Shown piece after piece: positions 1 through 19,129 of a stretch of DNA of 61,959 nt. The number at the start of each line of letters is the position of its first letter. The first letter of the stretch is position 1. Source of the DNA: Candidatus Danuiimicrobium aquiferis (GTDB lineage Bacteria; Omnitrophota; Omnitrophia; Omnitrophales; Danuiimicrobiaceae); NCBI GenBank assembly GCA_001804285.1, contig MHFR01000045.1:534-62492 (forward strand), given 5' to 3'. The notes beneath the pieces were generated by a model. The model did not search any database, was not told the origin of the DNA, and worked only from the letters and a program-made list of their open reading frames with translations. The translations under genes were made by a program, and so were the position numbers.

Positions 1-1
1 G

Positions 2-3000
2 AATGTGAACTGGAATGATTTACAGGTTTTGAGTGATGTCGGAGTGAACTGGGGTGATATGGAAGTTCTGAGTGATACAAATATTAATTGGCAAGACTTA
101 CAGATTATGAGTGATGTGGGGATTAATTGGTCAGATATGAAAACCTTGAATGATCAAAATATTAATTGGAGTGATTTGCAAATTCTGAGTGATAGCGGAA
201 TCAATTGGAGTGATTTGAAGGTTTTCACAGACGCAAATGTTAATTGGGATGACTTTAAAGTGATGACAGATACCGGGGTGAACTGGAGCGATTTTAAAGT
301 CATAAGTGAGGCTGGGATTAATTGGTCAGACTTAGAGGTTTTGAGTGATGCCGGGGTAAATTGGCTCGATATGAAGGTTTTGAGTGATACAAATGTGAAT
401 TGGGATGACCTTCAATTGCTTAGTGACAACAATATCAATTGGAATGATTTGGAAATATTAAGCGATGCAAATATTAATTGGAATGATCTTCAGATTATGA
501 CAGATGTTGGATTGAACTGGGACGATATGGTGATTATGACAAAGATCAATGTGAATTGGGATGACATGAAATCTATGAGTGATGCCGGAGTGAATTGGTC
601 ACTTTTTACAAGCCAAGGAGTAAACTGGGCGGATATCCGCGCGATGAGCATTGCCAATGTGAATTGGGGTGATCTACAAACGATGAGTGACTCAAATGTA
701 AATTGGAGTGATTGGAGAACAATGAGCGATATGGGAGTGAACTGGAATGACTTGCAGGTGCTGAGTGATGCGGGAGTGAACTGGAGCGATATGGAGGTTT
801 TGAGCAAGGCAAATGTAAACTGGGATGATCTGCAGGTGATAAGTGAAACGAATGTGAACTGGATTGACTTCAAGACCATGAGCGAATCTAATGTGAACTG
901 GAACGACTTGCGCATTTTAAGTGATGCGGGAGTCAATTGGTCTGATTTTAAGGTGTTGAGCGAGACAAATGTAAATTGGAATGACTTACAAGTGATGAGT
1001 GATGCGGGAGTGAATTGGAGCAATCTCCAAGTTCTTACTTTGGCTAATATTAATTGGATTGATTTACAGACAATGTCTGACACAGGAGTGAATTGGAGTG
1101 ATTTCAAGGTGTTGAGCGAGATGAATATCAACTGGGATGATTTACAGGCGCTAACCGATGCAGGAGTGAATTGGGCGGATATGAAGGTCTTTAGCGAGGC
1201 AAACGTAAATTGGAGTGATCTGGAAGTCATGACCGATGCGAATGTGAATTGGATGGATATGCAGGCATTAAGCGCAGCCAATATTAACTGGAATGATTTG
1301 CAGGTGATGTCGGATAGCCATACCAATTGGTCTGATTTTAAGGTGCTAAGTGAAGCTGGTGTTAACTGGGCTGATTTCCAGGAAATGAGCGAAGCTGGAG
1401 TGAATTGGTCGGATATGAAAGTTTTGAGTGATGCGAATATCAATTGGTCGGATATGCAAATGATGACAGAAATGCATGTCAATTGGGGAGACTTGGAGGC
1501 ACTTCATGATGCAAATATCAATTGGGATGATTTGCAAGTGTTGAGCATGACCAATGTTAATTGGGCTGACCTCGAGACGTTAACCACAGCAGGTGTTAAT
1601 TGGTCAGATATTCAAACTATGAGTGATGCCGGAGTGAACTGGAGTGATTTCGAAACGCTGAGCGAAACCAATATTAATTGGGAAGATTTGCGTGTGTTAA
1701 GCGAGGCTGGAGTAAATTGGGGAGATCTGAAATTGCTGAGTGATACAAACATCAACTGGAATGATTTGCAATTGCTGAGTGATACAAATGTCAATTGGTC
1801 TGACTTCCAAATCTTAAGTGATGCAAATGTCAATTGGAATGACTTGCAGGCTCTCAGTGACGCCGGAATTAATTGGGATGACTTCAAAGTGTTTAGTTCT
1901 GCTAATATAAATTGGGTTGATATGAAAGTTTTGAGCGATACCGGTCTAAACTGGGGTGATATGGAGGTATTGAGTAAGGCCAATGTGAATTGGGGAGATT
2001 TACAAGTCATGAGCGATGCGGGAGTGAATTGGAGTGATATGAAAGCGTTAAGTGATACAAATGTTAATTGGGATGATTTGCAGGCTTTGAGCGAAGCCGG
2101 AGTTAATTGGGGTGATTTACAAGTGATGAGTGATAACAATATTAACTGGATGGATATGCAAGTTCTCTCGCAGACAAATATTAATTGGAATGATTTTAAG
2201 ATGATGAGTGATGCCGGAGTAAATTGGAGTGATATGGAGGTCTTGAGTAAGGCTAATGTAAATTGGAATGATCTGCAGGTGTTGAGCGATATAGGGGTGA
2301 ATTGGGATGATTTTCAGGCGCTGAGTTATGCAAATGTGAATTGGGGAGACTTACAGGCCCTAAGTGATGCGGGCATTAATTGGGATGATATGAATATCTT
2401 GACCAAAGCGAATGTGAACTGGAATGATATGAAAATGCTGAGTGACGCTGGGATTAATTGGGGAGACCTAAAATTAATGAGTGATGCGGGAGTGAACTGG
2501 AATGATATGGAAGCGCTGAGCAAAACAAATGTTAATTGGGATGATATGCAAGCCCTGAGCGAAGCGAATATTAATTGGCAGGACTTGCAAACAATGAGTG
2601 ATGCAAATGTGAACTGGAATGACATGCAAACCATGAGCGATCGCAATGTTAATTGGGATGATCTCCGAATTTTGAGTGACGCGAATGTTAATTGGCAAGA
2701 TCTCGAACTTCTCTCTGACGCCGGAGTAAATTGGGAAAATATGCAAGTGATGAGTGATGCCGGGGTGAATTGGGGGGATATGGAAGTCTTGAGTAAAGCG
2801 AATGTAAATTGGAATGACTTGCAGGTGATGAGTGAAGCCGGGGTGAACTGGGGTGATATGGAAATCTTGAGTAAAGCGAATGTAAATTGGAATGACTTGC
2901 AGGTCATGAGTGATGCCGGGGTGAACTGGGGTGATATGGAAGTCTTGAGTAAAGCGAATGTAAACTGGAATGACTTGCAGGTCATGAGTGATGCCGGGGT

Positions 3001-6000
3001 GAACTGGAGTGATATGGAAGTATTGAGTAAAGCGAATGTAAATTGGAATGATTTACAGGTTCTGAGTGATGCGGGAGTGAACTGGAGTGATATGGAAGTA
3101 TTGAGTAAAGCGAATGTAAATTGGGGAGACTTACAGGTGATGAGTGACGCCGGAGTAAACTGGAGTGATATGGAGGTCTTGAGTAAAGCGAATGTGAATT
3201 GGAGTGACCTACAGGTATTAAGTGACGCCGGGGTGAACTGGAGTGATTTGGAAACATTGAGTAAGACAAACGTGAATTGGGCAGATCTTCGTTCATTGAG
3301 TGATGCCGGGGTGAATTGGGGGGATATGGAAGTCTTGAGTAAAGCGAATGTGAACTGGAGTGATTTGAATGTGTTAAGTGAAGCTGGGGTGAATTGGGCG
3401 GATATGAAAGTATTAACTGATGCGGGAATTAATTGGGGTGACATGCAGGTTTTCAGCGACGCGAATGTGAATTGGAATGACATGAAAGCGTTAAGCGATA
3501 CAAATGTGAATTGGTTTGATCTGCAAATGATGAGCGATGCTGGGGTGAATTGGTCTGATATGAAAATCCTAGGTGATACGAATGTGAATTGGACGGATTT
3601 TCAAATCATGAGCGATGTTGGAGTGAATTGGAGTGATATGGAAGTTTTAAGCAAAGCGAATGTAAATTGGAACGACTTTCAAGTGTTGAGTGACGCCGGC
3701 GTGAATTGGGCGGATCTTAAAGTTCTTTCGGATACGAACGTGAACTGGGTGGACTTGCAAATTATGAGTGATGAGGGTGTTAATTGGATCGATCTGCAAG
3801 GGTTAAGCCGAGCCAACATTAATTGGAATGACATTCAAAACTTAAGTGATGCCAATGTTAATTGGGACGATTTACGTCTGCTTGGTAATGCCAATGTGAA
3901 TTGGAGTGATTTGCAAGTTTTGACAGATAATAACATTAACTGGTCCGACCTGAAAGTATTGAGTGATACGGGGGTAAACTGGGATGATTTGCAGGCTTTG
4001 AGCGATGCCGGAGTGAACTGGTCGGATATGAAAGCTTTAAGTCAGGCAAATGTTAACTGGTCTGATTTGCAAATGCTGAGCGATTCGAATATTAATTGGC
4101 TTGATATGCAGACTTTTAGCGATGCTAATGTGAATTGGCAGGATTTGCGTTTGTTGAGTGACGCCGGAGTGAACTGGAGTGATTTCGAAGTTATGAGTAA
4201 AGCAAATGTGAATTGGGATGAATTCAAAACTCTGAGCGAAGCAAATGTGAATTGGGGAGATTTACAGGTATTGAGTGATGCTGGCATCAATTGGGATGAC
4301 TTGAAGACTTTGAGCGCGACAAATATTAATTGGGAAGATCTCAAGGCGATGAGTGACACGAATGTGAATTGGCTCGATATGAAAGCGCTTGGAGATGCCA
4401 ATGTCAATTGGGATGATTTACAAATTATGTCTGACAACAATGTGAATTGGTTGGATATGAAAGCTTTGAGTGATGCCGGCGTGAATTGGAGTGATTTACA
4501 GGTCATGAGTGATGTGGGAGTGAATTGGAGTGACATGAAAGTTTTCTCCGAAGCGAATGTGAATTGGTCTGATATAAAAACCATGGCAGACATGGGGGTC
4601 AATTGGATAGACATGGAAGCCATGAGTGACGCGGGGGTCAATTGGGACGATCTTCGGGTTCTGAGTCAGACGAATGTAAATTGGAGCGATCTGGAAATAT
4701 TAAGCACTGCGAATGTGAATTGGAATGATTTGCAGACATTGACTGATGCCGGGGTGAACTGGAGTGATATGGAAGTCTTAAGTAAGGCGGATATAAACTG
4801 GAACGACTTACAGGTGATGAGTGATGCAGGAGTCAACTGGAGTGATATGGAAGTGCTGAGTAAGGCGAATGTAAATTGGGGCGATTTGCAAGCGTTGAGC
4901 GATGCCAATGTGAATTGGAATGATCTTCAGGTACTTACCGATGCGGGCGTGAATTGGGACGATATGCAGATCCTTAGCAAAGCAAATATCAATTGGAGTG
5001 ATTTTGGGACATTGAGTAAAGCCGGCGTCAATTGGTCTGATTTGCAGGTGATGAGTGATACCCATGTAAATTGGAATGATTTAAAGACTCTCTCTGATGC
5101 CGGAATCAACTGGAGTGACCTTAAAGTCATGGCTGAGACCAATGTAAACTGGGAAGATCTCAAAGCCTTAAGTGATATGGGAGTTAATTGGGCTGATCTG
5201 AAGAGCCTTGGCGATGCAAATGTGAATTGGTCTGATTTGCAGTCTATGTCGGATGCCGGAGTAAATTGGCTGGATCTGCAAACTCTAAGTAAGGCTAACG
5301 TCAATTGGTCTGATTTTCAGGGTTTGTCAGAAGCAAATATTAATTGGGCCGATTTGCAAACCATGAGTGATGCCGGAGTGAACTGGAGTGATTTTAAGAC
5401 GCTGAGTGAGGCGAATGTGAATTGGGGAGATCTGCAAGCGATGAGTGACGCTGGGGTGAACTGGAACGATATGGAGGTGTTGAGTAAATCGAATGTGAAT
5501 TGGGATGATTTGCAGGTTCTGAGTGATATGGGGTTGAACTGGGCAGATTTCCAAGTATTAAGCGACACGGGTATCAATTGGGCTGATTTAGGCATTCTCG
5601 GTAACAGTAATATCAATTGGGCTGATCTGCAGGTCATGAGTGATCAAGGAGTGAATTGGGCAGATTTTGAAACTCTTAGCAAGGCCAATATTAATTGGAA
5701 TGATTTCCAGGCTTTGAGTGCTGCCAATGTGAATTGGGTGGACCTCAGGATCTTGAGTCAAGCCAATGTTAACTGGAGCGATTTGCAGACATTGAGCGAT
5801 GCCGGAGTAAATTGGAATGATTTCCAGGTGATGAGTGATGCTGGGGTGAATTGGGAAGACATGAAACTTCTAAGCGAGGCAAATGTCAATTGGGGTGACT
5901 TTGAAGCGTTGAGTGATGCGAATGTGAATTGGAATGACTTGCAAGTTCTCAGCGATGCAGGAGTAAACTGGTCAGATATGCAAATCCTGACTCAAGCGAA

Positions 6001-9000
6001 TGTGAACTGGGGGGATTTAGAGGTTTTGAGCGATGCGAATGTGAATTGGTCTGATTTGGCGATTCTTGCTGCATCAAATGTGAATTGGGGAGATTTACAG
6101 GTGATGAGTGATGCGGGGGTGAATTGGAGTGATATGGAAGTGCTCAGTAAAGCGAATATAAATTGGAATGATTTGGAAGTAATGAGTGATGCGGGAGTGA
6201 ATTGGTCTGATATGGAAGTTTTGAGTAAGGCGAACGTGAATTGGGATGACTTACAGGTACTGAGCGCCGCCGGGGTGAACTGGGGTGATATGGAGGTATT
6301 AAGTAAAGCGAATGTGAACTGGAACAACTTACAGGTGATGAGTGACGCTGGAGTAAACTGGGGTGACATGGAGGTACTCAGTAAAGCGAATGTGAATTGG
6401 AATGACTTACAGGTTCTCAGTGATGCCGGGGTAAACTGGAGCGACATGGAAATAATGAGCAAGGGGAATGTGAATTGGAATGACTTGCAGGTTCTGAGTG
6501 ATGCGGGAGTGAACTGGAGTGATCTGGAAGTGCTGAGCAAGGCGAATGTGAATTGGGGAGACTTACAGGTTCTGAGTGATGCTGGAGTGAACTGGAGTGA
6601 TATGGAAGTTTTAAGTAAAGCGAATGTGAATTGGGGAGACTTACAGGTGATGAGTGATGCGGGCGTGAATTGGGCAGATATGAATGTGCTAACAGATGCA
6701 AATGTAAATTGGGATGATTTGAATGTGTTGAGTAAAGCGAACGTAAATTGGTTCGACATGCAAACGATGAGCGATGCCGGAGTGAATTGGAGCGACTTTA
6801 AAGTGCTGAGTGAAGCGAATGTGAATTGGGATGATTTACAAACACTCTCTGATACCGGTATCAACTGGCTTGATTTTAAAGTTTTGTCGGATGCCGGTAT
6901 TAATTGGTCTGATTTCCAGGTCATGGCAGACGCGAATGTGAATTGGAGTGATATGAAGGCCATGAGTGAAATGGGAGTGAATTGGCTGGATTTGGAGTCG
7001 ATGCATGACGCAAATATTAATTGGAGTGATTTACATGCCCTGAGCGAAACCCAAATTAATTGGGATGACCTGCAAGTTCTATCCAAGGCGAACATTAATT
7101 GGAGCGATTTTAAGACTCTCACCGAAGCCGGAGTGAACTGGAGCGATCTCCAAACCATGAGCGATGCGAATGTCAATTGGTCAGATATTCGAACATTGAG
7201 CGAAACCAATGTGAACTGGGATGATTTGCAGTCTCTGAGTGAAGCCGGAATTAATTGGGGCGATTTCAAGGTCATGAGCGATATCGGAATTAACTGGAGT
7301 GATATGCGGGTGTTGAGTGAGACGAATATCAATTGGAGTGATATGAAAAATATGAGTGATGCGGGGGTGAATTGGCTTGATCTTGAAGCCCTGAGTGATT
7401 CAAACGTGAATTGGAATGATCTTCAGCTGATGTCGGATTCAAATTTGAACTGGAATGATTTCCGTGCATTGAGTGACATGGGAATCAATTGGAGTGATAT
7501 AGAAGTGATGACCGATGCCGGCGTGAATTGGTCAGATTTTAAGGTGCTGAGCGAGACGAACGTGAATTGGAATGACTTGCAGGTGATGAGTGATGCAGGT
7601 GTCAATTGGAGTGATATGGGAGTTTTGAGTTCGGCGAATGTCAATTGGAATGACTTGCAGGTGCTGAGTGATGCGGGAGTCAATTGGAATGATTTTAAGG
7701 TTCTCGGAGAGGCGAATATTAATTGGGATGATTTCCAGAATATGACCGATGCAAATGTCAATTGGGATGATTTAAATATTCTTTCAAAAACGAATGTCAA
7801 CTGGTCTGATTTGCAAGCCATGGCGGATATGGGCGTGAATTGGGGAGATCTCAAAGTGTTGAGTGACGCGGGAGTGAACTGGTCAGATATGCAGGCGCTT
7901 ACCGCAGCGAATGTGAATTGGTCTGGCCTGAAATCGCTGAGTGATGCCGGAATCAATTGGACAGATCTTGAAATCATGAGCGATGCCGGGGTGAATTGGG
8001 CGGATATGAAAGTTCTGAGTGAGGCGATAGTCAATTGGGATGATATTAAGGCGCTCAGTGAAGCCGGTGTGAATTGGAACGATTTCCAAGCATTGAGTGC
8101 CGCGAACGTGAATTGGACGGATCTCAATGCGCTAAGCGATGCGAATGTCAATTGGCTTGATCTTAAACAGTTGAGCGAGGCAAATGTGAACTGGGCAAAT
8201 CTGCAAACGATGAGTGATGCGGGGGTGAACTGGAGTGATATGGAAGTATTGAGTAAAGCGAATGTGAACTGGTCTGATTTTCAAACTTTGAGTGATGCAA
8301 ATGTGAACTGGTCTGATTTTCAAGTCTTGAGCGATGCCAACGTAAACTGGAATGATATGCAACTATTGAGTCAGGCGAATATTAATTGGAATGACATTAA
8401 AACGTTGAACGATGCGAATGTGAATTGGAACGATTTGCAAGTCCTGAGCGATGCGGGAGTGAATTGGAGTGATTTCGAAGTGATGAGCGACACGAATATC
8501 AATTGGAATGAGATTAAATCGCTCAGCGATACCGGTATTAATTGGTCAGATATTAAAACGTTTGCGGATACGAATATTAACTGGAGCGATCTCAAGGCTT
8601 TATCGGATGTCGGTATCAATTGGAGTGATATGCAGTTGCTCGCTAATGCAAACATCAATTGGACTGATCTAAAGGTCCTAAGTGATGCCGGCGTGAATTG
8701 GGGAGACCTCAATATTTTGAGTCAAGCGAATGTGAATTGGACGGATCTCCAGACGATGAGCGATGCCGGGGTGAATTGGTCCGACCTCGGTGCGTTGAGC
8801 ACGGCTAACGTGAATTGGAGCGATCTTGAATTGATGAGTGATGCCAATGTTAACTGGCAGGAAATGAAAGTGTTGAGCGATAATAATATTAACTGGTCTG
8901 ATCTCCAGGCGATGAGCGATGCGGGAATTAATTGGAATGATTTCGAAGTGTTAAGCAAAACAAATGTGAATTGGGATGATTTGCAAGTTTTGAGCGATGC

Positions 9001-12000
9001 TGGAGTGAATTGGTCCGATATGAATATTTTGAGCCGCGCGAATGTTAATTGGAGTGATATTCAAACGCTTGCGGATGCAAACATTAATTGGTCGGACTTG
9101 GAAGTGCTGAGCGATACCGGTGTCAATTGGGATGATATGAAAGCACTTTCGGATGCGGGCGTGAATTGGAATGATTTGGAAGTAATGAGTGATGCGGGAG
9201 TGAATTGGTCTGATATGAAAGTTTTGGCGGACAGCAATGTGAATTGGAGTGATTTGCAGGTTTTGGGTGATGCCGGAATCAATTGGAACGATTTCCAAGC
9301 ACTTACCCTTGCCGGAGTCAATTGGGAAGATATGCGTATTTTATCGGCGGCAAACGTCAATTGGGATGGGATGAAAGCGCTGAGTGATGGAAATGTGAAC
9401 TGGGCTGATATGCAACTACTAACCGATGCGGGCGTCAATTGGAATGATCTCAAATTGATGAGTGAATCTAATGTGAATTGGACCAACTTCGAAGTGATGA
9501 GTTCTTCTGGAATCAATTGGGATGACATTAATCTGTTAAGCCGTGCCGGGGTTAATTGGGATGGATTGTCGGCATTGGCGGATTCCAATATCAATTGGGA
9601 TGATTTACAGATCATGTCCAAGGCAGGCGTGAATTGGGGTGATTTTAAGGCGCTCAGCGAAGCGAATGTCAATTGGAATGATTTACAAGTGATGAGTGAT
9701 ACGGGAGTGAATTGGAATGATTTACAAATGATGAGTGATATGGGAGTGAATTGGAATGATATGCAGAGCTTAACCGATGCGGGAGTGAACTGGGCTGATT
9801 TGAAAACCTTGAGCGATGTGGGAGTGAATTGGAATGATTTCAAAGTTTTAGGCGATGCGAATATTAATTGGGATGATTTGCAGACTTTAACTGATAATGG
9901 TATCAATTGGTTGGACTTTAGAGGGTTAAGCGAAGCCAATGTGAATTGGATAGGATTGGAGGCATTAGCCAAAGCAAATGTGAATTGGGAGGACCTCCGA
10001 AGCATGAGCGACGAGGGAATTAATTGGAGTGATTTTTCCTCTCTCACAGCTTCGAATATCAATTGGTCAGACTTGAAAATTATGGCTGAATCTGGTGTGA
10101 ATTGGGGTGATTTGAGCGCCCTCAGCGAGTCTAATATTAATTGGGAAGATTTGCAAAATATGACCGACGGGAATGTCAATTGGGAAGGTCTTGGTGAGAT
10201 GAGCGATGCCAATGTGAATTGGTCTGATTTTCAAGTCATGAGTGATGCTAAAGTTAACTGGCTGGAACTGTCGGAATTGAGCGAGCAAAATATTAATTGG
10301 GTCGGGATGAAGAACCTTACGGAGGCGCAAATTGATTGGACCAATTTAGCGCAATTAACAACCGCTGGAGTGAACTGGGATAGTTTAGCATCACTGTCTG
10401 GAGCGGATGTGAATTGGGATTCTCTGGAAGTAATGAGTACGGCGGGAGTGAATTGGGACGGAATTGACGAGCTGAGCCGCGCAGGAGTGAACTGGAATGA
10501 TTTGAAATTGATGAGTGAAGCGAGTATTAATTGGGGTGATTTTCAAGTGATGTCGAATATAAATCTAAACTGGGAAGACCTTCAGACGCTCAGTGATGTC
10601 GGCATCAATTGGAGTGACTTTAAATTGATGAGCGATACGGGGATCAATTGGAGTGATATGGGTGTGATGGCGGAGGCAAATGTCAATTGGGAAGAAATCC
10701 GGACCATGTCTGAAATTAATGTGAATTGGTTAGATTTGAGAAGCTTGACGGAAGCTGGTATTAATTGGAATGATATCGGCGCATTTTCCGAAGCCGGCAT
10801 CAATTGGAGCGATATCAAAGTTCTCTCACAAGCTGGGGTGAATTGGAATGACCTTCAATCGTTGACTGAAGCCGGCATTAATTGGTCAGATCTTGGTACG
10901 ATGACTGAAGCCGGGGTGAATTGGCTGGATCTCAAAGTACTTGCCGAAACGAATGTGAATTGGGATGATTTGCAGTCGATGACGCAGGCGGGAATTAATT
11001 GGAGCGATATGGGTGCGTTAACGAAAGCCGGCGTAAATTGGGTGGATTTGAAGGTAGTGACGGAAACTAATATTAACTGGGATGATCTTGGTTATATGAC
11101 AGGGACCGGGATTAATTGGACCGATGTTCAAGGCCGGTCGGTATCGCATATTAATTGGTCCAGTATTGCCGGATTAGCCGGTTCGAATATTAATTGGTTA
11201 GATATGGCGACTATCAGTGATCGCGTTGACGGGCTGATAACCGATTTAACGGATACGCTCAATACGGTGACAACGATGAACACAACCATAGGCACAACCG
11301 GAGATACAAGTGCTGCTGATACACTATTTGGGAAATCGATGTTAATTTTGGATGGTGTAAACGGGATCAATGCTGACAATATCGATACGCTTGTCGAGAT
11401 GTTAGGAGATCCATCTGACCTAGCGACGACAGATACAGTTTTCGGCAAGATCGCGGCTTCGAGGGCAGTGATCGACAGCGTGAGTTCAACATTGGGCGCG
11501 ACGACCGATACTTCCGCAACTGCTTCACTCTATGGAAAGGTTTTAGGGGTTGAGGAAGCATTAGATGAATTGGATGAAGGTACGTTGACACAGTTGGCTA
11601 CCCTTTCGACAACCATTGGTTCCACCACAGATGCATCAACTGCGGAAACGCTGTTTGGCAAAGTGGCAGCAAGTAGAGCATTGGTTGGAACAACTTCGGA
11701 TGCAACTTCAACCTTGAGCGTATTTGGAAAATTAGCCAAGCTAACTTCCGCTCTGGACAATGTTGACGGGACAACCAATAGCATTTTAGAACAAACCAAA
11801 GGATTGAGTAATACACTTACGGGGTCAGACAGTCAATCGATACAAAGCAAGATTGAAAACTTGAAGGGTCTTGTTGAACAATTGAATGGGTTAACCAGCA
11901 CGATGGCAACAGAAAACTTGCAGCAACATGTCGTATCCCAGCAGCTGATCAACACGTTAATCGATAAGGTCAACCAAAGTGCTTCGGATCTCGGATTTAT

Positions 12001-12241
12001 CGGATCTCATATTGATTCTCTGACCGAAGAGCAAAGCAAAAATCAGACGGCGGTACAATCGAAATTGGATGAAATTAAGACATTTGTTTCGGCGATTCAT
12101 AAGGCAACAGAAGCTCAGTCGTATGTGGCGCTTTCGGAGGAAGGCGAGGAACAGGTTCAAGCCATTATTCAGTCGACAATTGGCGGTGAAGAACCAACCG
12201 CAGCTGAACCTGCAGGCGGAACGACACCTCCCGTGACATAA
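2..12241 (+). CDS. Giant tandem-repeat protein, 5'-truncated by the window edge (>=4,079 aa visible). About 285 copies of a 13-aa NW unit plus a 340-aa non-repeat C-terminal module. Function unknown; possibly a secreted or surface fibre/adhesin.
   Basis: The reading frame is uninterrupted from the first bases of the window to TAA at 12239-12241. Periodicity is a strict in-frame 39 nt. Amino-acid positions are conserved while the DNA shows synonymous variation, so selection acts on the protein. The GTG at 5 is just an internal Val codon, so the true N-terminus lies upstream of the window. Confidence 0.85.
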   Translation, partial: NVNWNDLQVLSDVGVNWGDMEVLSDTNINWQDLQIMSDVGINWSDMKTLNDQNINWSDLQILSDSGINWSDLKVFTDANVNWDDFKVMTDTGVNWSDFKVISEAGINWSDLEVLSDAGVNWLDMKVLSDTNVNWDDLQLLSDNNINWNDLEILSDANINWNDLQIMTDVGLNWDDMVIMTKINVNWDDMKSMSDAGVNWSLFTSQGVNWADIRAMSIANVNWGDLQTMSDSNVNWSDWRTMSDMGVNWNDLQVLSDAGVNWSDMEVLSKANVNWDDLQVISETNVNWIDFKTMSESNVNWNDLRILSDAGVNWSDFKVLSETNVNWNDLQVMSDAGVNWSNLQVLTLANINWIDLQTMSDTGVNWSDFKVLSEMNINWDDLQALTDAGVNWADMKVFSEANVNWSDLEVMTDANVNWMDMQALSAANINWNDLQVMSDSHTNWSDFKVLSEAGVNWADFQEMSEAGVNWSDMKVLSDANINWSDMQMMTEMHVNWGDLEALHDANINWDDLQVLSMTNVNWADLETLTTAGVNWSDIQTMSDAGVNWSDFETLSETNINWEDLRVLSEAGVNWGDLKLLSDTNINWNDLQLLSDTNVNWSDFQILSDANVNWNDLQALSDAGINWDDFKVFSSANINWVDMKVLSDTGLNWGDMEVLSKANVNWGDLQVMSDAGVNWSDMKALSDTNVNWDDLQALSEAGVNWGDLQVMSDNNINWMDMQVLSQTNINWNDFKMMSDAGVNWSDMEVLSKANVNWNDLQVLSDIGVNWDDFQALSYANVNWGDLQALSDAGINWDDMNILTKANVNWNDMKMLSDAGINWGDLKLMSDAGVNWNDMEALSKTNVNWDDMQALSEANINWQDLQTMSDANVNWNDMQTMSDRNVNWDDLRILSDANVNWQDLELLSDAGVNWENMQVMSDAGVNWGDMEVLSKANVNWNDLQVMSEAGVNWGDMEILSKANVNWNDLQVMSDAGVNWGDMEVLSKANVNWNDLQVMSDAGVNWSDMEVLSKANVNWNDLQVLSDAGVNWSDMEVLSKANVNWGDLQVMSDAGVNWSDMEVLSKANVNWSDLQVLSDAGVNWSDLETLSKTNVNWADLRSLSDAGVNWGDMEVLSKANVNWSDLNVLSEAGVNWADMKVLTDAGINWGDMQVFSDANVNWNDMKALSDTNVNWFDLQMMSDAGVNWSDMKILGDTNVNWTDFQIMSDVGVNWSDMEVLSKANVNWNDFQVLSDAGVNWADLKVLSDTNVNWVDLQIMSDEGVNWIDLQGLSRANINWNDIQNLSDANVNWDDLRLLGNANVNWSDLQVLTDNNINWSDLKVLSDTGVNWDDLQALSDAGVNWSDMKALSQANVNWSDLQMLSDSNINWLDMQTFSDANVNWQDLRLLSDAGVNWSDFEVMSKANVNWDEFKTLSEANVNWGDLQVLSDAGINWDDLKTLSATNINWEDLKAMSDTNVNWLDMKALGDANVNWDDLQIMSDNNVNWLDMKALSDAGVNWSDLQVMSDVGVNWSDMKVFSEANVNWSDIKTMADMGVNWIDMEAMSDAGVNWDDLRVLSQTNVNWSDLEILSTANVNWNDLQTLTDAGVNWSDMEVLSKADINWNDLQVMSDAGVNWSDMEVLSKANVNWGDLQALSDANVNWNDLQVLTDAGVNWDDMQILSKANINWSDFGTLSKAGVNWSDLQVMSDTHVNWNDLKTLSDAGINWSDLKVMAETNVNWEDLKALSDMGVNWADLKSLGDANVNWSDLQSMSDAGVNWLDLQTLSKANVNWSDFQGLSEANINWADLQTMSDAGVNWSDFKTLSEANVNWGDLQAMSDAGVNWNDMEVLSKSNVNWDDLQVLSDMGLNWADFQVLSDTGINWADLGILGNSNINWADLQVMSDQGVNWADFETLSKANINWNDFQALSAANVNWVDLRILSQANVNWSDLQTLSDAGVNWNDFQVMSDAGVNWEDMKLLSEANVNWGDFEALSDANVNWNDLQVLSDAGVNWSDMQILTQANVNWGDLEVLSDANVNWSDLAILAASNVNWGDLQVMSDAGVNWSDMEVLSKANINWNDLEVMSDAGVNWSDMEVLSKANVNWDDLQVLSAAGVNWGDMEVLSKANVNWNNLQVMSDAGVNWGDMEVLSKANVNWNDLQVLSDAGVNWSDMEIMSKGNVNWNDLQVLSDAGVNWSDLEVLSKANVNWGDLQVLSDAGVNWSDMEVLSKANVNWGDLQVMSDAGVNWADMNVLTDANVNWDDLNVLSKANVNWFDMQTMSDAGVNWSDFKVLSEANVNWDDLQTLSDTGINWLDFKVLSDAGINWSDFQVMADANVNWSDMKAMSEMGVNWLDLESMHDANINWSDLHALSETQINWDDLQVLSKANINWSDFKTLTEAGVNWSDLQTMSDANVNWSDIRTLSETNVNWDDLQSLSEAGINWGDFKVMSDIGINWSDMRVLSETNINWSDMKNMSDAGVNWLDLEALSDSNVNWNDLQLMSDSNLNWNDFRALSDMGINWSDIEVMTDAGVNWSDFKVLSETNVNWNDLQVMSDAGVNWSDMGVLSSANVNWNDLQVLSDAGVNWNDFKVLGEANINWDDFQNMTDANVNWDDLNILSKTNVNWSDLQAMADMGVNWGDLKVLSDAGVNWSDMQALTAANVNWSGLKSLSDAGINWTDLEIMSDAGVNWADMKVLSEAIVNWDDIKALSEAGVNWNDFQALSAANVNWTDLNALSDANVNWLDLKQLSEANVNWANLQTMSDAGVNWSDMEVLSKANVNWSDFQTLSDANVNWSDFQVLSDANVNWNDMQLLSQANINWNDIKTLNDANVNWNDLQVLSDAGVNWSDFEVMSDTNINWNEIKSLSDTGINWSDIKTFADTNINWSDLKALSDVGINWSDMQLLANANINWTDLKVLSDAGVNWGDLNILSQANVNWTDLQTMSDAGVNWSDLGALSTANVNWSDLELMSDANVNWQEMKVLSDNNINWSDLQAMSDAGINWNDFEVLSKTNVNWDDLQVLSDAGVNWSDMNILSRANVNWSDIQTLADANINWSDLEVLSDTGVNWDDMKALSDAGVNWNDLEVMSDAGVNWSDMKVLADSNVNWSDLQVLGDAGINWNDFQALTLAGVNWEDMRILSAANVNWDGMKALSDGNVNWADMQLLTDAGVNWNDLKLMSESNVNWTNFEVMSSSGINWDDINLLSRAGVNWDGLSALADSNINWDDLQIMSKAGVNWGDFKALSEANVNWNDLQVMSDTGVNWNDLQMMSDMGVNWNDMQSLTDAGVNWADLKTLSDVGVNWNDFKVLGDANINWDDLQTLTDNGINWLDFRGLSEANVNWIGLEALAKANVNWEDLRSMSDEGINWSDFSSLTASNINWSDLKIMAESGVNWGDLSALSESNINWEDLQNMTDGNVNWEGLGEMSDANVNWSDFQVMSDAKVNWLELSELSEQNINWVGMKNLTEAQIDWTNLAQLTTAGVNWDSLASLSGADVNWDSLEVMSTAGVNWDGIDELSRAGVNWNDLKLMSEASINWGDFQVMSNINLNWEDLQTLSDVGINWSDFKLMSDTGINWSDMGVMAEANVNWEEIRTMSEINVNWLDLRSLTEAGINWNDIGAFSEAGINWSDIKVLSQAGVNWNDLQSLTEAGINWSDLGTMTEAGVNWLDLKVLAETNVNWDDLQSMTQAGINWSDMGALTKAGVNWVDLKVVTETNINWDDLGYMTGTGINWTDVQGRSVSHINWSSIAGLAGSNINWLDMATISDRVDGLITDLTDTLNTVTTMNTTIGTTGDTSAADTLFGKSMLILDGVNGINADNIDTLVEMLGDPSDLATTDTVFGKIAASRAVIDSVSSTLGATTDTSATASLYGKVLGVEEALDELDEGTLTQLATLSTTIGSTTDASTAETLFGKVAASRALVGTTSDATSTLSVFGKLAKLTSALDNVDGTTNSILEQTKGLSNTLTGSDSQSIQSKIENLKGLVEQLNGLTSTMATENLQQHVVSQQLINTLIDKVNQSASDLGFIGSHIDSLTEEQSKNQTAVQSKLDEIKTFVSAIHKATEAQSYVALSEEGEEQVQAIIQSTIGGEEPTAAEPAGGTTPPVT
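2741..3375 (+). repeat. Block of ~8 near-identical 78-nt super-units (DAGVNW[S/G]DMEVLSKANVNW[N/G/S]DLQV[M/L]S)
   Basis: Aligning consecutive 78-mers by eye (2761, 2839, 2917, 2995, 3073, 3151...) shows only a few substitutions per copy. This is far more similar than the rest of the array. Confidence 0.9.
6088..6680 (+). repeat. Second block of ~7.5 near-identical 78-nt super-units of the same DAGVNWSDMEVLSKANVNWNDLQV[M/L]S type
   Basis: It has the same 26-aa consensus as block 2741-3375, repeated with few changes. The two blocks are ~3.3 kb apart inside the same ORF. Confidence 0.9.
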
Positions 12242-12352
12242 GGACTTGAAACACCCGGTAAGGAAAGATAAGGTATTTCGGCCTAAATAGTCAATTTTAG
12301 GAATTATTAGCCGTTAATAATAAAAAAGTAAAACGTTCATTTATTGTGTTTG

Positions 12353-12451
12353 TTTAGCGTTTTGAAGTTGACCATTGCCCCTCACCCTACCCATCTCCCG
12401 GGGGAGAGGGCAGGGGCGAGGGAGATTTATTCATAACTTCAAAATGCTAAA
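12353..12451. repeat. Type-A palindromic element (~100 nt): AT-rich arms flanking a GC-rich core CCCCTCACCC...GGGGGAGAGGG...GAGGG
   Basis: The left arm TTTAGCGTTTTGAAGTT is the reverse complement, with 1 mismatch, of the right arm AACTTCAAAATGCTAAA. The core itself is an imperfect palindrome. A full second copy lies in inverted orientation at 44262-44360, and a core-only copy at 41951-42008. Confidence 0.8.
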
Positions 12452-12505
12452 TAACTCAACCTGACCGTTTTTTTTGATTGAGCAGTTTACAACACTTTAT
12501 GCTGC

Positions 12506-12573
12506 GTCATTCCCGAAAGCTTTTGTCGGGAATCTACAGCCTTAGATTCCCGCTTAAAACTTGCGGGAATGAC
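12506..12573. repeat. Type-B double-hairpin element (~65-75 nt): outer stem GTCAT/ATGAC enclosing two hairpins ATTCCCGN...NCGGGAAT
   Basis: The sequence is GTCATTCCCGAAAGCTTTTGTCGGGAAT...ATTCCCGCTTAAAACTTGCGGGAATGAC. Related copies lie at 38412-38486 and 42834-42896, and a longer relative at 30871-31033. Confidence 0.8.
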
Positions 12574-12689: not shown

Positions 12690-14036
12690 ATGAGAATATT
12701 TAGCGCAAATAATAGATTTTTTCTGCTATTTTTTATACTGAGTAGTTCATTCCTTTACTATTTTTTCCCTTTGCAGCCGCTTTGTGCGGAAGAGGCGATT
12801 GAGATTAAAATTGTCGCTATCAATCCCTCTCCTAAAGCTAAAACCACCGCTAAAATTATGCAGGCATTGCCGCCGGAAGTAAAACAAGAGGATGTGATAG
12901 ATGCCCAAGGGCTTCAAATTATTTATAATCCCGATCAAGACAACTATGCAGTTTCAGGGGAAATAGAATTACAGCCGCGTGAGAAAAAAACGATCACCGT
13001 TAAAGTCAGAAATGTCTGGTCGATTTCCGGCGATGAAATTCAGGAAGTTCGGGATCAATTAGCTAAAAATGTGCAGTCGCTTGCCGGAACCAAATATGAG
13101 ACGACCAGTAAATTATTAGCGGATAAAGTCCAACAAGAACTCGATAGTGTTCAAGCAGATGAAGAAAAGGCGGTCGGGATTAAACAGAAGATTGATCTTT
13201 ACCGGGCGCATGTAAAGCAGCTCGAAGCCATCAGGACAAGAGTGATTTCTTTGGAGTCCATGCGGCGGGTGGGAGATGAGCAGCAAGAAGGCGCACGAAC
13301 GGTTGAATTTAAAGTTTCGGCGTCGAACCCGTCGAACGAACCAAAGGCGATGACGGTACGGTCAGCTTTGCCCGAAGATATCACGAGTGATGCTGTTCTG
13401 GATAAGGGTGATTTTATGATGCTCTTTGACCAATCCAAGGGCCGCTTTATTGTCGAAAAGCAGGATAATTTTAATGCGAAAGAAGCCAAAACATACACAA
13501 TTATTTTAAGAGATATTTGGTATATCCCAAAACCAGAGCTGGATTATTTGGGGGAACAAACACAAAAGTTGGTGAAGCAGTTTGAAGGAAGTCAGTATGC
13601 GGGGTATGCGACTCAATTGGGAGATGTGATTAAGCAGAATCTCGACAAGATTAATGAACTGCAGGAGGAAATCGGAGCAGATGCGTCTATTAGCGATCGT
13701 AAGCGCACATTTATTCTAAATTCCGGCCGGCTGGATCTGGCCAAGAAAAAAATTAAAGAACTTCAAGAGTTATTGCTCGAATTGCCTATCACAGTCAAAA
13801 AGAAAGAAGACCAAATTAAGGCGATTCGGGAATTTCAGAAAGCGCTGGAGAAAATTCTGAGCATGGGAATCGACCCGGAGAAGAAGACGACATGGTTTAT
13901 CATTCTCGGGATTATTGCGATAGTTTTTATCGTAGGACTGATTTTTTATTTTACATGGCTTGCAAAATTAAAACAAAGTAAAGAAAAAGAAAGAAAGATT
14001 GCGTCTTCGCAACAGGCGACGCAATCTAAAACCTGA
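12690..14036 (+). CDS. Membrane-anchored protein of unknown family with an internal tandem duplication; first gene of the ATPase/T2SS-like array
   Basis: 448-aa ATG ORF. It has a hydrophobic N-terminal signal/anchor (FFLLFFILSSSFLYYFF..LCAEE). A C-terminal TM helix (WFIILGIIAIVFIVGLIFYFTWL) is followed by a basic tail. Two homologous ~125-aa modules (aa ~36-160 and ~205-330) are each followed by helical, heptad-like sequence. Confidence 0.75.
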   Translation: MRIFSANNRFFLLFFILSSSFLYYFFPLQPLCAEEAIEIKIVAINPSPKAKTTAKIMQALPPEVKQEDVIDAQGLQIIYNPDQDNYAVSGEIELQPREKKTITVKVRNVWSISGDEIQEVRDQLAKNVQSLAGTKYETTSKLLADKVQQELDSVQADEEKAVGIKQKIDLYRAHVKQLEAIRTRVISLESMRRVGDEQQEGARTVEFKVSASNPSNEPKAMTVRSALPEDITSDAVLDKGDFMMLFDQSKGRFIVEKQDNFNAKEAKTYTIILRDIWYIPKPELDYLGEQTQKLVKQFEGSQYAGYATQLGDVIKQNLDKINELQEEIGADASISDRKRTFILNSGRLDLAKKKIKELQELLLELPITVKKKEDQIKAIREFQKALEKILSMGIDPEKKTTWFIILGIIAIVFIVGLIFYFTWLAKLKQSKEKERKIASSQQATQSKT

Positions 14037-14047: not shown

Positions 14048-15544
14048 ATGACGAGTGATTTACGATATAAAGAATTTGGCGTAGTTAAATCCGTTTGCGG
14101 TTGCGTTGTAAACGTATTAAATTTAAAGAATTGTTTTCTCGGACAACTAGTCCGTTTTGGCTATGGCACCGAGGGGATTATTATGGGATTTAATCCGGAT
14201 AGTGCCATGGTGCTTGTCGTCAAACAAAACGAGCCGCTTTCCGCCGGGACGAAAGTGGAAGCAACCCTTGAGCCGTTCAACATGCCGACGGGTGAAAAGT
14301 TTATGGGGCGTGTGGTGAATCCACTCGGAGAGGCTTTGGATGGGCAGGGCGATATTGAACCCGATGAAATGCTGCCTTATTTTGCGAAAGGGCCCGGAAT
14401 CATGGATCGAAATCCCGTTGTCGTGACGATTGAAACCGGTGTCAAGATGGTTGATACGATGCTGCCTCTTGGGCACGGCCAGAGGTCACTCATCATGGGT
14501 GATAAAATGATGGGGAAAACGACCATCGGTACGGATATTATCCTTAATCAAAAGGGAAGAAATGTGATTTGTATTTATTGTGCGATTGGGAAACCGCGGG
14601 CGACTTTGTCGCGTGTGATTAATTTACTGAGCCAAAACGGCTGTTTGGATTATACGATTGTTTGTTCTGCCGGCGCCAACACATCTCCGGGTCAGCAATA
14701 TTTAGCGCCTTACGCCGCTTGTTCTCTCGGCGAGTATTTTATGAAACGAGGCAAGCGCGTATTTGTTTTATTTGACGATTTTACCAAGCATGCGTGGTCG
14801 TATCGTGAACTTTCACTGCTGATGGGTGTTCCGCCGGGACGAGATTCTTATCCCGGAGACGTATTTTATTTGCATTCCAGGATGATTGAACGCGCTGCAC
14901 AGCTGAACGATAAATTAGGAAATGGTTCCATGACGTTTATCGCGATCGTGGAATTGCTTGAAGGAGATTTAACGGCATATGTTCCGACAAATTTGGTGTC
15001 TATGACCGACGGTCAAATTGTGTTGAATACGACCTCGTTTAACGAAGGATTCCGTCCCGCTCTGGATATTGGTTTATCGGTGTCACGTATCGGAACGAAA
15101 GTTCAGTGGAAAGCCATGAAGGATGTAAGTAAATCCATGCGTTTGGAATATATTCAATATAAAGAACTATTGCGTATCAGTAAATTGTCTACAGGCGGTA
15201 TTTCCGTGGAAACACAGGAAAAACTGGATTCGGGAAAACTATTGACCTCGTTAATTGTTCAAGGGCCCAATGTTCCGGTTGACTATGTCCGGCAAATTAT
15301 GGTTTTTTTCGTAAGAAACGAGAAGTTATTGAAAGGATTGACCCCGGAGCAGGGAGGCTTGTTTGTAGAAAATATTTTGGAATATGCCGAACAACATGAT
15401 CATGGTTTGGTCGCGGAGTTGCGCAGTAAGAAAGACTTAAAAGATGACCTGAAGCAAAGAATTACAAAAGTTGCTCAGATTTTGATCGATGATATTAAAC
15501 AGGGTTCTGTTCAAAAAGCTTCGCCTGTGGGGGCTGCGAATTGA
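14048..15544 (+). CDS. atpA: F-type ATPase alpha subunit, divergent
   Basis: It matches alpha signature blocks: ETGVKMVDTMLPLGHGQRSLIMGDKMMGKT (P-loop GxxxxGKT at 14498-14521), PGRDSYPGDVFYLHSRMIERAA, VPTNLVSMTDGQIVL and GLSVSRIG. The N-terminus looks ~20 aa shorter than E. coli alpha, based on an alignment from memory. Confidence 0.9.
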   Translation: MTSDLRYKEFGVVKSVCGCVVNVLNLKNCFLGQLVRFGYGTEGIIMGFNPDSAMVLVVKQNEPLSAGTKVEATLEPFNMPTGEKFMGRVVNPLGEALDGQGDIEPDEMLPYFAKGPGIMDRNPVVVTIETGVKMVDTMLPLGHGQRSLIMGDKMMGKTTIGTDIILNQKGRNVICIYCAIGKPRATLSRVINLLSQNGCLDYTIVCSAGANTSPGQQYLAPYAACSLGEYFMKRGKRVFVLFDDFTKHAWSYRELSLLMGVPPGRDSYPGDVFYLHSRMIERAAQLNDKLGNGSMTFIAIVELLEGDLTAYVPTNLVSMTDGQIVLNTTSFNEGFRPALDIGLSVSRIGTKVQWKAMKDVSKSMRLEYIQYKELLRISKLSTGGISVETQEKLDSGKLLTSLIVQGPNVPVDYVRQIMVFFVRNEKLLKGLTPEQGGLFVENILEYAEQHDHGLVAELRSKKDLKDDLKQRITKVAQILIDDIKQGSVQKASPVGAAN

Positions 15545-15804
15545 ACACATTTAATCTGCGCGTGTTGAGTTCTGTTCGTGTGTTGTTTAGTGAACAAGTG
15601 GCGTCTGTGTTTCTTTCGGGGGATGAAGGGGAATTTGAATTGCTTCCTTTTCATTACCCATTGATGGCTGCTCTGCCTGAAGGGGAAATTGTCATTGCCG
15701 GATATGACAAAATTCCATTACGACAGGGGGTTGTTGTTTTTTTAGATAATATCTGTACGATTATTATTGAAGAATTAGTCGCGGAATCTTTTATTGAAAA
15801 TTAA
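15541..15804 (+). CDS. atpC: F-type ATPase epsilon subunit, N-terminal beta-sandwich domain only (87 aa)
   Basis: LRVLSSVRVLFSEQVASVFLSGDEGEFELLPFHYPLMAALPEGEIVIA aligns with E. coli epsilon [48 protein letters not shown]. The C-terminal helical hairpin is absent. The TTG start overlaps the atpA stop (TTGA). Confidence 0.8.
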   Translation: MNTFNLRVLSSVRVLFSEQVASVFLSGDEGEFELLPFHYPLMAALPEGEIVIAGYDKIPLRQGVVVFLDNICTIIIEELVAESFIEN

Positions 15805-15824: not shown

Positions 15825-16040
15825 ATGCAAAATGCAATTGCGTTAGTAGGCATCATGTTCATCGCTGTCATGGGGCCGGCGATTGTTATTGCTGTGATCG
15901 GTTTTGCGACCATTAAAGCTTTGGGGCGGAACCCGTCTGCAGCGCCCAAGATTTTTATGGGAGTCGTGATGATGCTTATTTTTGCTGAAGCGACATCCAT
16001 TATCGCACTTTTAATCATTTACCAGTTGTTTCATCCATAA
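15825..16040 (+). CDS. atpE: F-type ATPase c subunit (71 aa hairpin)
   Basis: It has two TM helices joined by the polar loop ALGRNPSAAP (compare ARQP in E. coli). A carboxylate sits in helix 2 (FAEATS, Glu codon 15987-15989). The helix-1 GxGxGxG motif is largely replaced (VMGPAIVIAVIGFA). Confidence 0.85.
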   Translation: MQNAIALVGIMFIAVMGPAIVIAVIGFATIKALGRNPSAAPKIFMGVVMMLIFAEATSIIALLIIYQLFHP

Positions 16041-16059: not shown

Positions 16060-16809
16060 ATGAAGTTCATTCACATTGTTCAGTTTCTAATTTTTCAAAG
16101 CATTTTTGTCGGGATTGTTATTTATTTTCTAAGAAAAATATTTTATGCCGACACCGATAGTGCCATTAATCGGTTGGGCAGCGTCCATGAAGATATGCAG
16201 AAGAAACAGCAGGAGTTGGCACAGAAAATCGACCTAGCCGAAAAGGAATATCAAAACAAGAAAGACGAGGCGATTGCGATCAAAGACAAGCTTCAGGCAC
16301 AAGCGGTGGATGAATCCAGAAAAAAGAAAGATGAAATGATGAAAGAGGCGAAGGTGGAAGCCGATGCCCTGATTGACAAGGCGGTGAAATCGAGCGCAAA
16401 ACATTTGAAAGACATAGAAAAGAATTTTAATGTCAAAGTGATAGAATTCAGTGCGGCGCTTATCCGGTCTATTTTTAGTGAAGAAACATTGAAGAAAATC
16501 CATCAGGATTTTGTTGCGGATTTCCTGACTCGAAGTAAAGATTTGGATCTGACGAGCGTGAGCGAAGATATTTCAGATTTAACGATTAAGACAGCCCTGC
16601 CTTTGGAAGAAGAGGTGAAGGTGAAATTAAATACGATGATCCAAGCGAAATTAAAAAGAGAAATCACGTTTACTGAAGTCGTTGATAAAGAGCTTGTGGC
16701 GGGGATTTTGCTCCAACTTGGGACGCTTGTGTTGGATGTGTCCGTCAGTAACGCTATTCGTGAGAAAAATTTGGAAATGCGGCGCGATCAGGAAATTGCA
16801 AACCGGTAA
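16060..16809 (+). CDS. atpF: F-type ATPase b subunit fused to a delta (OSCP) C-terminal-like segment (249 aa)
   Basis: It has an N-terminal TM helix followed by a long charged helix typical of b. The C-terminal ~65 aa (from ~16582), ALPLEEEVKVKLNTMIQAKLKREITFTEVVDKELVAGILLQLGTLVLDVSVSNAIRE, resembles the E. coli delta C-terminus (...[35 protein letters not shown]). No separate delta gene is present. Confidence 0.7.
   Translation: MKFIHIVQFLIFQSIFVGIVIYFLRKIFYADTDSAINRLGSVHEDMQKKQQELAQKIDLAEKEYQNKKDEAIAIKDKLQAQAVDESRKKKDEMMKEAKVEADALIDKAVKSSAKHLKDIEKNFNVKVIEFSAALIRSIFSEETLKKIHQDFVADFLTRSKDLDLTSVSEDISDLTIKTALPLEEEVKVKLNTMIQAKLKREITFTEVVDKELVAGILLQLGTLVLDVSVSNAIREKNLEMRRDQEIANR

Positions 16810-17713: not shown

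Positions 17714-19129
<1,416 letters not shown>

Follow-up and report, generated by a model that had tools for sequence, protein, structure and literature searches.

Omnitrophota are widespread, uncultured nanobacteria that are thought to live on other cells. Here we analyze a 61,959-nucleotide (nt) stretch of the genome of Candidatus Danuiimicrobium aquiferis (assembly GCA_001804285.1, contig MHFR01000045.1, positions 534 to 62,492 of the forward strand; this whole stretch is called the window, and its coordinates are used throughout), which opens inside a giant gene. The product, which we call the NW protein for the Asn-Trp pair that recurs along it, is encoded upstream of a conserved protein termed hyp448, an F1-like ATPase and a set of pilus genes. 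Giant repeat stalk proteins as a kind are already known, as is the ATPase/pilus locus; what is new is the repeat class and its strict genetic coupling to hyp448 and to an F1-like ATPase that lacks an a-subunit.

The closest described relatives in kind are the Omnitrophota giant proteins named ‘Archaeovorin’ and ‘Dockerin-type’, which carry many transmembrane (TM) helices, a SecA DEAD domain, and HEAT, TPR and enzyme domains or dockerin/TSP3 domains, a gspD/E/F-rcpC system lying ahead of their genes (10.1101/2023.11.21.568195; PMC10066038; 10.64898/2026.06.07.730766). The NW protein resembles them in coming from the same phylum, in being very long, in breaking short-read assemblies, in its proximity to type II secretion and pilus genes, and in a proposed role in attachment to host or prey. 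It differs from them in having neither a TM segment nor a Pfam domain, in consisting almost wholly of one 13-residue unit, and in the position of its gene between a secretin and an F1-like ATPase. We rejected an Archaeovorin-type identity because the protein has no TM regions and leaves no room for a SecA DEAD domain beside the NW units and the tail, with none seen in the N-termini of orthologues either; a Dockerin-type identity was rejected for want of any match to PF00404 or PF18884. Lacking TM helices, SecA and dockerin/TSP3 domains, the NW protein therefore represents a further class of Omnitrophota giant.

The gene cluster itself has a clear precedent. A ‘symbiotic’ type-2/3 F-type ATPase and type IVa pilus (T4aP) locus, with the two parts co-located in 57 of 66 contigs, has been proposed to serve attachment and motility on host cells (PMC10066038). 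The downstream half of the cluster described here (alpha through beta, PilB, PilC and pilins) matches that locus, for which the text searched makes no mention of an NW gene and hyp448 as conserved first genes (PMC10066038); in our data these two precede the ATPase in 30 of 30 loci. The same paper also draws an analogy between the Omnitrophota ATPase and the gliding machinery of Mycoplasma mobile (PMC10066038), where a non-respiratory F1-like ATPase is associated with very large surface proteins that catch and pull on host surfaces (PMC8406192, PMC11864180, PMC6935860). In contrast to M. mobile, c, b/delta, gamma and epsilon subunits are retained in the Omnitrophota set, a secretin is present in what is probably a diderm organism, and the NW protein has no homology to known families. 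Any mechanical coupling of the NW protein to the ATPase is purely something we infer.

Two broader classes of protein invite comparison. Giant tandem-repeat adhesins, such as the Ig-repeat RTX proteins and the helical-bundle rod Ebh, combine an export signal, a binding end, a long stalk of variable copy number and an anchoring end. The NW protein has this general design in common with them, but their units are domains of 90-130 residues as against 13 residues here, and their RTX/type I secretion system (T1SS) signal, LPXTG motif and autotransporter barrel were all not found in the NW protein. Short-repeat solenoids are built from TPR units of 34 residues, HEAT units of about 40, ANK units of 33, leucine-rich repeats (LRR) of 20-30 or pentapeptide repeats arranged as 5x4. 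Like the NW array they consist of tandem units with conserved apolar positions and a turn residue, and likely form an elongated superhelix, yet all are longer than a period of 13 with a helix of about nine residues; no Pfam model of these classes matches NW, and AlphaFold2 finds no known packing for it.

The NW protein is a candidate surface component of the proposed attachment and motility locus, for which we offer a concrete model below. Its 13-residue unit, found in more than 560 copies at most, is a candidate new repeat fold and would be an attractive minimal helical-repeat scaffold. Public annotation calls family members ‘hypothetical’ or names them for an incidental N-terminal domain (‘LamG domain-containing’, ‘carboxypeptidase-like regulatory domain-containing’ at NCBI), and a unit profile would annotate hundreds of truncated open reading frames (ORFs) and flag assembly break points.

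An array of 287 Asn-Trp units under protein-level selection

Frame 2 of the plus strand runs without a stop from base 2 of the window to a stop codon at 12241, giving 4,079 residues, and the remaining five frames contain 29-483 stops across the array. Both the window and its source contig, which at 62,659 nt at most exceeds the window by no more than about 700 nt, end inside the array; the 5’ part of the gene lies beyond them, and 4,079 residues is a lower bound. The array itself (2..11227, plus strand) holds 287 in-frame units, each marked by an Asn-Trp pair, with a spacing of exactly 13 residues in 284 of 286 gaps; two units are irregular, one being shortened to 10 residues (at about residues 197-207) and one having IDW in place of INW (at about residue 3444). 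The consensus in the window is V/I (98%)-N (100%)-W (100%)-s-D (93%)-L/M/F-q/k/e-v-L/M (95%)-S/T (90%)-D/E/K-A-(N 51%/G 44%). Trp makes up 7.7% of the residues, acidic residues average 2.05 per unit, and Cys is absent from the NW protein and Pro from all 3,745 repeat residues. The calculated pI of the 4,079-residue fragment is 4.05 and its mass 454 kDa. No TM segment is present over the 4,079 residues (maximum 19-residue hydropathy 0.92). A preliminary description made from the sequence alone had counted about 285 tandem 13-residue copies ending at 11220, with Trp at about one residue in 13; count, consensus and Trp content all agree with the present analysis, and the array end was essentially correct, though the ORF runs on through a 337-residue tail free of NW units.

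Identity between units is about 61% at the DNA level and about 54% at the protein level at all lags from 1 to 100, and this flat profile indicates that the array is old and diverged, with no recent expansion. Unit identity at codon positions 1, 2 and 3 is 0.59, 0.77 and 0.45, respectively, and many synonymous codons are used for the conserved residues. Exact DNA repeats within the array reach 55 nt at most, and every 61-mer is unique. The sequence has also been recovered more than once: NCBI contig MHFP01000089.1 (GCA_001804245.1) is 100% identical to window positions 2690-24036, and a JGI contig from a separate assembly matches the window at 99.96% identity over 18.3 kb, of which 6.5 kb fall in the array. 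The array is under protein-level selection, is not a DNA satellite, and assembles unambiguously. The codon-position identities and the variety of synonymous codons thus bear out the earlier view of a selected protein periodicity. A long-read-style contig of a related organism shows the repeat too: it has at least 260 AAYTGG motifs, the spacing is exactly 39 nt for 206, and frameshifts interrupt the series.

It should be mentioned that antisense ORFs of 175-446 residues lie within the array on the minus strand (window 490-10212), where frame 1 has 29 stops in 11.2 kb. These ORFs, together with the high GC skew over the array (0.37-0.48), result from the codon composition of the repeat.

Pfam, NCBIfam and PHROGs searches assigned the repeat to no family: all matches (Lysostaphin_N, Ntox33, RecG_dom3_C, Pentapeptide_4 and others) had zero independently significant stretches, and nearly all of those to Pfam and NCBIfam scored under the curated cut-offs. 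These matches are artefacts of composition and periodicity. A profile of the repeat run against all PDB sequences returned just a myc-tag concatemer and a heptad repeat, both chance matches. The top Pfam match, to the 13-residue repeats of Lysostaphin_N (PF25533; 33.4 bits against a cut-off of 60, no significant stretch), shares the period of 13 and is precomputed for one NW homologue, but the NW motif and the apolar pattern are not shared, and the match is therefore a periodicity artefact. Pentapeptide repeats have a period of 5 rather than 13 (Pentapeptide_4, 19.8 bits against a cut-off of 38, no significant stretch), no LRR model (20-30 residues, LxxLxLxxN) was matched, and the TPR, HEAT and ANK alpha-solenoids, built of two-helix units of 33-40 residues, do not fit a 13-residue unit predicted to hold a single helix and gave no profile match. 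An RTX or giant T1SS adhesin was rejected because neither the array nor the tail contains a GGxGxD motif or a Pfam match and the orthologues have a Sec-type signal. A phage tail fibre or other viral protein was likewise dismissed, as the PHROGs matches had no significant stretches and IMG/VR (viral contigs) yielded no confirmed relative; a likeness to helix-hairpin-helix motifs was dropped after insignificant matches. In addition, neither a Trp repeat nor a repeat of 13 residues turned up in text searches of Omnitrophota giant-protein papers (10.1101/2023.11.21.568195; PMC10066038; 10.64898/2026.06.07.730766) and of a paper library. Judged by these sequence and profile comparisons, the repeat class is new; the preliminary description, which could place the unit in no named family and had set aside pentapeptide, RTX, LRR and TPR/HEAT repeats, was right on both counts, given the period of 13 and the lack of any model above cut-off.

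A family of giant genes in Omnitrophota

A word-indexed search returned 32 homologues, nearly all annotated as ‘partial’, and those that carry an organism name are all from Candidatus Omnitrophota. Among GTDB species representatives we confirmed 322 stretches, mostly labelled Omnitrophota or from metagenome-assembled genome (MAG) bins with another label or none, and the majority lie at contig ends. An exhaustive hidden Markov model (HMM) search of 1.84 billion cluster representatives gave 459 matches at E <= 1e-3 and 134 at E <= 1e-10; the NW family is globally rare. The 287-unit array of the window fits the family profile, the sole difference being that in the window Asn is as frequent as Gly at position 13.

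Pieced together from fragments, the family architecture starts with a signal peptide and a beta-rich head, continues with the NW array and closes with the ‘TLFGK’ tail, which is rich in Thr and Ser. The signal peptide of the orthologues ends in A-x-A and is followed by (Q/A)(Y/I)(T/Y)GGSxxG; the head, of about 300 residues, leads through a few ‘IKAKTDTINWxDI’ pre-repeats into the array. Signal peptide and head are present in about 24 orthologous loci. The head has no family in Pfam, NCBIfam, PHROGs or PDB profile searches and is variable, in some lineages carrying LamG or other modules. At one locus (L031 5561-9500) about 900 extra N-terminal residues contain roughly eight ‘FQWSKRLGG...NADLNGDGDTADxNE’ repeats and two FN3-like stretches; by sequence the repeats resemble propeller or calcium-binding repeats, which suggests that the head is modular.

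Copy number differs widely between members. The complete ones have 900 residues with about 23 units (P0039) and 1,292 residues with about 42 units plus an extra LamG domain (P0037), further loci have 300-450 units up to the edge of the fetched stretch, and the largest gene, on a 1.34-Mb contig, is open for at least 7,542 residues with at least 562 units, 560 of its 561 gaps being 13 residues. Modules of 10-15 looser, NW-like units are also found in otherwise unrelated secreted multidomain proteins (P0043, P0044, P0053, P0108) together with adhesin-type domains such as GLUG/M26-N, InlB B-repeat, NBR1-type Ig or LamG, which indicates that the unit is a reusable extracellular module beyond the giant gene.

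The C-terminal tail in the window (337 residues, 11228..12241, plus strand) lacks a TM segment and shows homology to that of orthologues (P0025, P0014, P0033 and the complete members P0037 and P0039). It begins with five ‘T-[TS]-D-x-S...[LV]-[FY]-G-K’ repeats, continues with a polar, helical-looking region and finishes in an acidic, Pro-containing end. No Pfam, PDB or PHROGs family was found for it, and a homologue search with the tail gave three matches only; this scarcity implies that the tail diverges fast. In many orthologues a ‘T-D-T-S...T-L-F-G-K’ motif stands in single copy directly ahead of the first NW unit; the tail has it five times (window 11228-11800), and on the basis of these placements ‘TLFGK’ may cap both ends of the array.

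A conserved secretin/ATPase/pilus supercluster

In all 30 loci with enough downstream sequence, a homologue of hyp448 begins 5-250 nt past the NW stop codon, and the ATPase and then the pilus genes follow in the same order as far as the stretches reach. Upstream synteny was counted in the 24 loci that carry the N-terminus of the NW gene: on the same strand lie a secretin (22/24), a TPR protein (23/24), proteins with an FGE-sulfatase domain (20/24), an unknown protein of 209 residues (17/24) and an ExeA-like AAA ATPase (12/24). The giant gene thus sits in the middle of one conserved secretin/ATPase/pilus supercluster. As a control, NW arrays were present in 0 of 80 loci around F-type alpha genes, among the matches listed; these loci are mostly canonical ATP synthases and serve as a specificity control only.

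In the window, hyp448 (12690..14036, plus strand), a single-pass membrane protein, has a signal or TM segment at residues 10-28, a C-terminal TM helix at residues 397-428 and a short basic tail. It holds two homologous domains of about 170 residues (internal duplication, E = 5e-17) and has no match in Pfam, NCBIfam, PDB or PHROGs. The F1-like ATPase genes that follow on the plus strand, identified by their Pfam domains, encode alpha (14048-15544), epsilon (15541-15804), c (15825-16040), a b/delta fusion (16060-16809), gamma (16819-17688) and beta (17717-19129). Beta retains VPADDMTDP among its catalytic motifs and c retains the Glu of FAEATS, the conserved carboxylate, so that by its motifs the enzyme looks catalytically intact. 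No match to the a-subunit (PF00119) was found among the called ORFs scanned over the 62-kb window, and the set would be a rotor ring and stator stalk without a recognisable ion channel.

The pilus genes, also on the plus strand and assigned by library search, comprise PilB/MshE with PilZ (19136-21337), PilC/GspF (21324-22568), a GspG-like pseudopilin (22602-23042), two N-methyl pilins (23049-23447 and 23413-24069) and a PilM-PilN fusion (24074-25591), followed by an unknown ORF of 224 residues within the type IV pilus (T4P)/type II secretion system (T2SS)-like stretch (25610-26284).

Structure of the unit and proposed function

Across 8,030 units from 70 arrays the family consensus is [IV]-N-W-s-D-[LIFM]-x-V-[LM]-[ST]-x-[ATS]-G, with Asn2, Trp3, Asp5, apolar residues at positions 1, 6, 8, 9 and 12, Ser/Thr10 and Gly13 as the family-invariant features. 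Two AlphaFold2 runs, one on 20 units (260 residues, 13-row self-alignment) and one on 12 units (156 residues, 57 rows including exact substrings of five homologues), were used for secondary structure only; DSSP assigned a helix at positions 3-11 in 20/20 and 12/12 units, with a four-residue linker between helices. The hydrophobic moment over positions 3-12 is maximal at 110-120 degrees and minimal at 170-180 degrees, and the strongest couplings between positions are of the i+3/i+4 kind (7-11, 5-8, 8-11, 4-7). Taken together, the predicted helices, the hydrophobic moment, the absence of Pro and the i+3/i+4 couplings favor a unit with one helix, and a single short capped alpha-helix per unit is supported.

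The textbook rules of helix capping assign characteristic residues to the N-cap, to the N3 position of the capping box and to the C’ position. Read against them, the consensus would place Asn2 as the N-cap and Asp5 as its N3 capping-box partner, with Val/Ile1 and Leu6 forming a hydrophobic staple, and Gly/Asn13 at the C’ position in a Schellman motif whose apolar pair is Leu9 and the next Val1.

Based on these observations we propose that the window encodes the C-terminal part, at least 4,079 residues, of a giant secreted fibre protein of Candidatus Omnitrophota that acts as a rod-like surface tether or adhesin tied to the secretion/ATPase machine, a reading to which we give a probability of roughly 60%; rod shape, surface location, anchoring and adhesive function are what we infer here from the sequence. 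Val/Ile1, Trp3, Leu6, Val8, Leu/Met9 and Ala12 would form a continuous apolar core on which hundreds of helical units stack to give a thin rod. If each helix adds a generic 0.5-1 nm, the estimated length is about 0.15-0.3 µm for 287 units and about twice as much for 562 units; the former is comparable to the reported size of Omnitrophota cells, roughly 0.2 µm. The protein would be exported by Sec plus the adjacent T2SS/T4P-like machine and held at the cell by its tail, possibly via hyp448, so as to display the N-terminal head on a long stalk to host or prey cells, and the neighbouring ATPase/pilus motor would provide secretion or mechanical force.

Several results weigh against this proposal. 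The N-terminus of the window’s own NW protein is not in the window, and an exact-pattern scan of a metagenome collection for an upstream extension found nothing. Both AlphaFold2 runs gave a pLDDT of 45 and a pTM of 0.25 and hence no confident three-dimensional model, and Foldseek with the low-confidence model found no match in the PDB; rod shape and buried Trp are unproven for these reasons. The 7-11 covariation consists mostly of like-charged pairs, which points to an effect of unit subtypes and downgrades covariation as evidence of contact, and a Fourier analysis of the whole unit gives a dominant hydrophobicity harmonic of 2.6 residues, which is non-diagnostic. The short arrays of the complete members could be collapsed assemblies. 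No anchoring motif of a known type is present, and a coiled coil in the tail or in hyp448 was not supported by a crude heptad test, leaving the proposed docking without direct support. Finally, a JGI contig (L077) has identical hyp448, ATPase and pilus genes and departs from the window at 12454, the end of an arm of a 20-nt inverted repeat; its positions 1-6351 hold a divergent canonical F1Fo operon (atpI-like, a, c, b, delta, alpha, gamma, beta) and no NW gene. At the other loci, canonical F1Fo genes do not precede the NW gene, and this contig could be a strain variant that lacks or has relocated the giant gene, or a chimeric assembly; if the join is genuine, the cluster can exist there without the giant gene.

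A bolder extension of the tether proposal, which we consider improbable, would make the array a new fold class, a solenoid with a capped helix of about nine residues in each 13-residue unit (the shortest helical repeat known), forming a fibre of 0.15-0.5 µm coupled mechanically via hyp448 to the pilus motor as well as to a rotary F1-like ATPase that has a c-ring but lacks the a-subunit, the whole acting as a hitherto unrecognised ATP-driven tether, winch or gliding apparatus with which the ultra-small Omnitrophota would catch or move on host cells.

The tether proposal has to be set against other readings, the best surviving of which, though unlikely, is that the NW protein is a structural envelope or matrix component: a coat, an S-layer-like lattice, a periplasmic spacer or a matrix fibre, with no adhesive head and merely co-transcribed with its exporter. 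The protein is repeat-rich, has a signal peptide and no catalytic domain, and its copy number varies 20-fold across the family, as would be expected for a spacer. Against this stand the conservation of the head, with LamG or other binding-type modules in some lineages, and the tight linkage to the ATPase and pilus motor, which suggests an active apparatus.

A further reading takes the coil envisaged in the preliminary description, of 26 residues with two pseudo-equivalent halves, an inner Trp/Leu ladder and regularly spaced Asp residues that could bind cations, to be a beta-solenoid. In the window, G-type and N-type units do switch in 178 of 262 neighbouring pairs, a number reached by 0 of 10,000 shuffles, and this alternation is real, if imperfect; moreover, Asp5 is conserved in 84-93% of units, D7-D11 pairs are enriched 3-fold, which could reflect cation bridging, and the whole-unit harmonic is not clearly helical. 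However, Gly occupies position 13 in 87% of the 8,030 family units, and N/G alternation is absent from most orthologues, being confined to the window’s lineage and a few others; as a lineage-specific trait it implies a structural unit of 13 residues, not 26. Across orthologues the net charge of a unit varies between -2.9 and about 0, and several of them carry Lys/Arg at position 11 in place of the Asp seen in the window. Both AlphaFold2 runs gave helices and no strands, the hydrophobic moment is lowest at 170-180 degrees, and the hydrophobic positions 3, 6, 9 and 12 are spaced by 3 rather than 2. A beta-solenoid is for these reasons quite doubtful. Of the earlier proposals, then, the 26-residue super-repeat holds for the window and not as a family trait; the acidity of the units likewise holds for the window, with regular acidity across the family reduced to the conserved Asp5; and cation binding by regularly spaced Asp is not borne out as a family trait. 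A long fibre with buried Trp and Leu is still the most plausible gross shape, without the 26-residue coil and with one helix in each 13-residue unit, and the structure prediction that had been recommended delivered a helix in all 32 units but neither a confident packing nor a Foldseek match.

Even less probable is a polyvalent glycan or cell-wall binder, in which Trp residues would form exposed platforms along the array as in choline-binding or cell-wall-binding repeats. An invariant Trp in every unit, polysaccharide and glycosylation genes nearby and the co-occurrence of NW-like modules with the lectin-type LamG domain would all suit such a function, but six of the 13 positions are apolar and need a core, Trp3 shares one face with Leu6 and Leu9, and the Pfam and NCBIfam searches of the repeat gave no match to CW_binding, SH3b, LysM or CBM families. 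That the array is an artefact, a misassembly or a non-coding satellite with a chance open frame, can be excluded even though the majority of public copies are cut at contig ends, as one frame only is free of stops over 12.2 kb, codon position 3 varies far more than position 2, no 61-mer is repeated, independent assemblies are identical, and dozens of species share both the protein pattern, at 45-63% identity, and the end domains.

Neighbouring genes and additional observations

The spacer between the NW stop codon and hyp448 is 449 nt long in the window and contains a hairpin-rich region (12350..12573). There a 20-nt inverted repeat (12350-12369 and 12435-12454) flanks a GC-rich palindrome (CCCCTCACCCTACCCATCTCCCGGGGGAGAGGGCAGGGGCGAGGGG), and a second hairpin has arms of 31 nt (12506-12573). 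A scan of the plus strand of the spacer for consensus terminators found none; the hairpins may serve as terminator or attenuator or belong to a small repeat element. It is also in this spacer that two further contigs start or break.

One MAG (JACPXL01) has two contigs (L001 and L047) that each carry an NW C-terminus followed by hyp448 and the F1-like ATPase; either the whole cluster is present twice or the bin contains heterogeneous strains.

The FGE-sulfatase-domain proteins, one or two per locus and about 530-580 residues long, lie directly upstream of the NW gene (L027 4032-7307; L003 8262-10004). Given that the NW protein has no Cys and no C/S-x-P-x-R motif, these FGE-like proteins may be structural rather than formylglycine-generating.

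An N-W-(S/T) sequon is found in 99 of the 287 units of the window, and position 4 is Ser or Thr in 43% of family units; these are candidate sites for the STT3/PglB-like enzyme encoded, along with a GT2 glycosyltransferase, within the pilus/T2SS-like cluster. N-glycosylation of the Campylobacter type was considered and rejected in that form, as there are no D/E-X-N-X-S/T sequons and no unit has an acidic residue at -2.

At the periphery of the cluster lie genes for a TPR protein (26268-27002, plus strand), a GT2 glycosyltransferase (27475-28215, minus strand), an STT3/PglB-like oligosaccharyltransferase (28312-30861, plus strand) and a GspK-like minor pseudopilin (31407-32489, plus strand), with a sulfatase gene further downstream on the minus strand (36035-37423).

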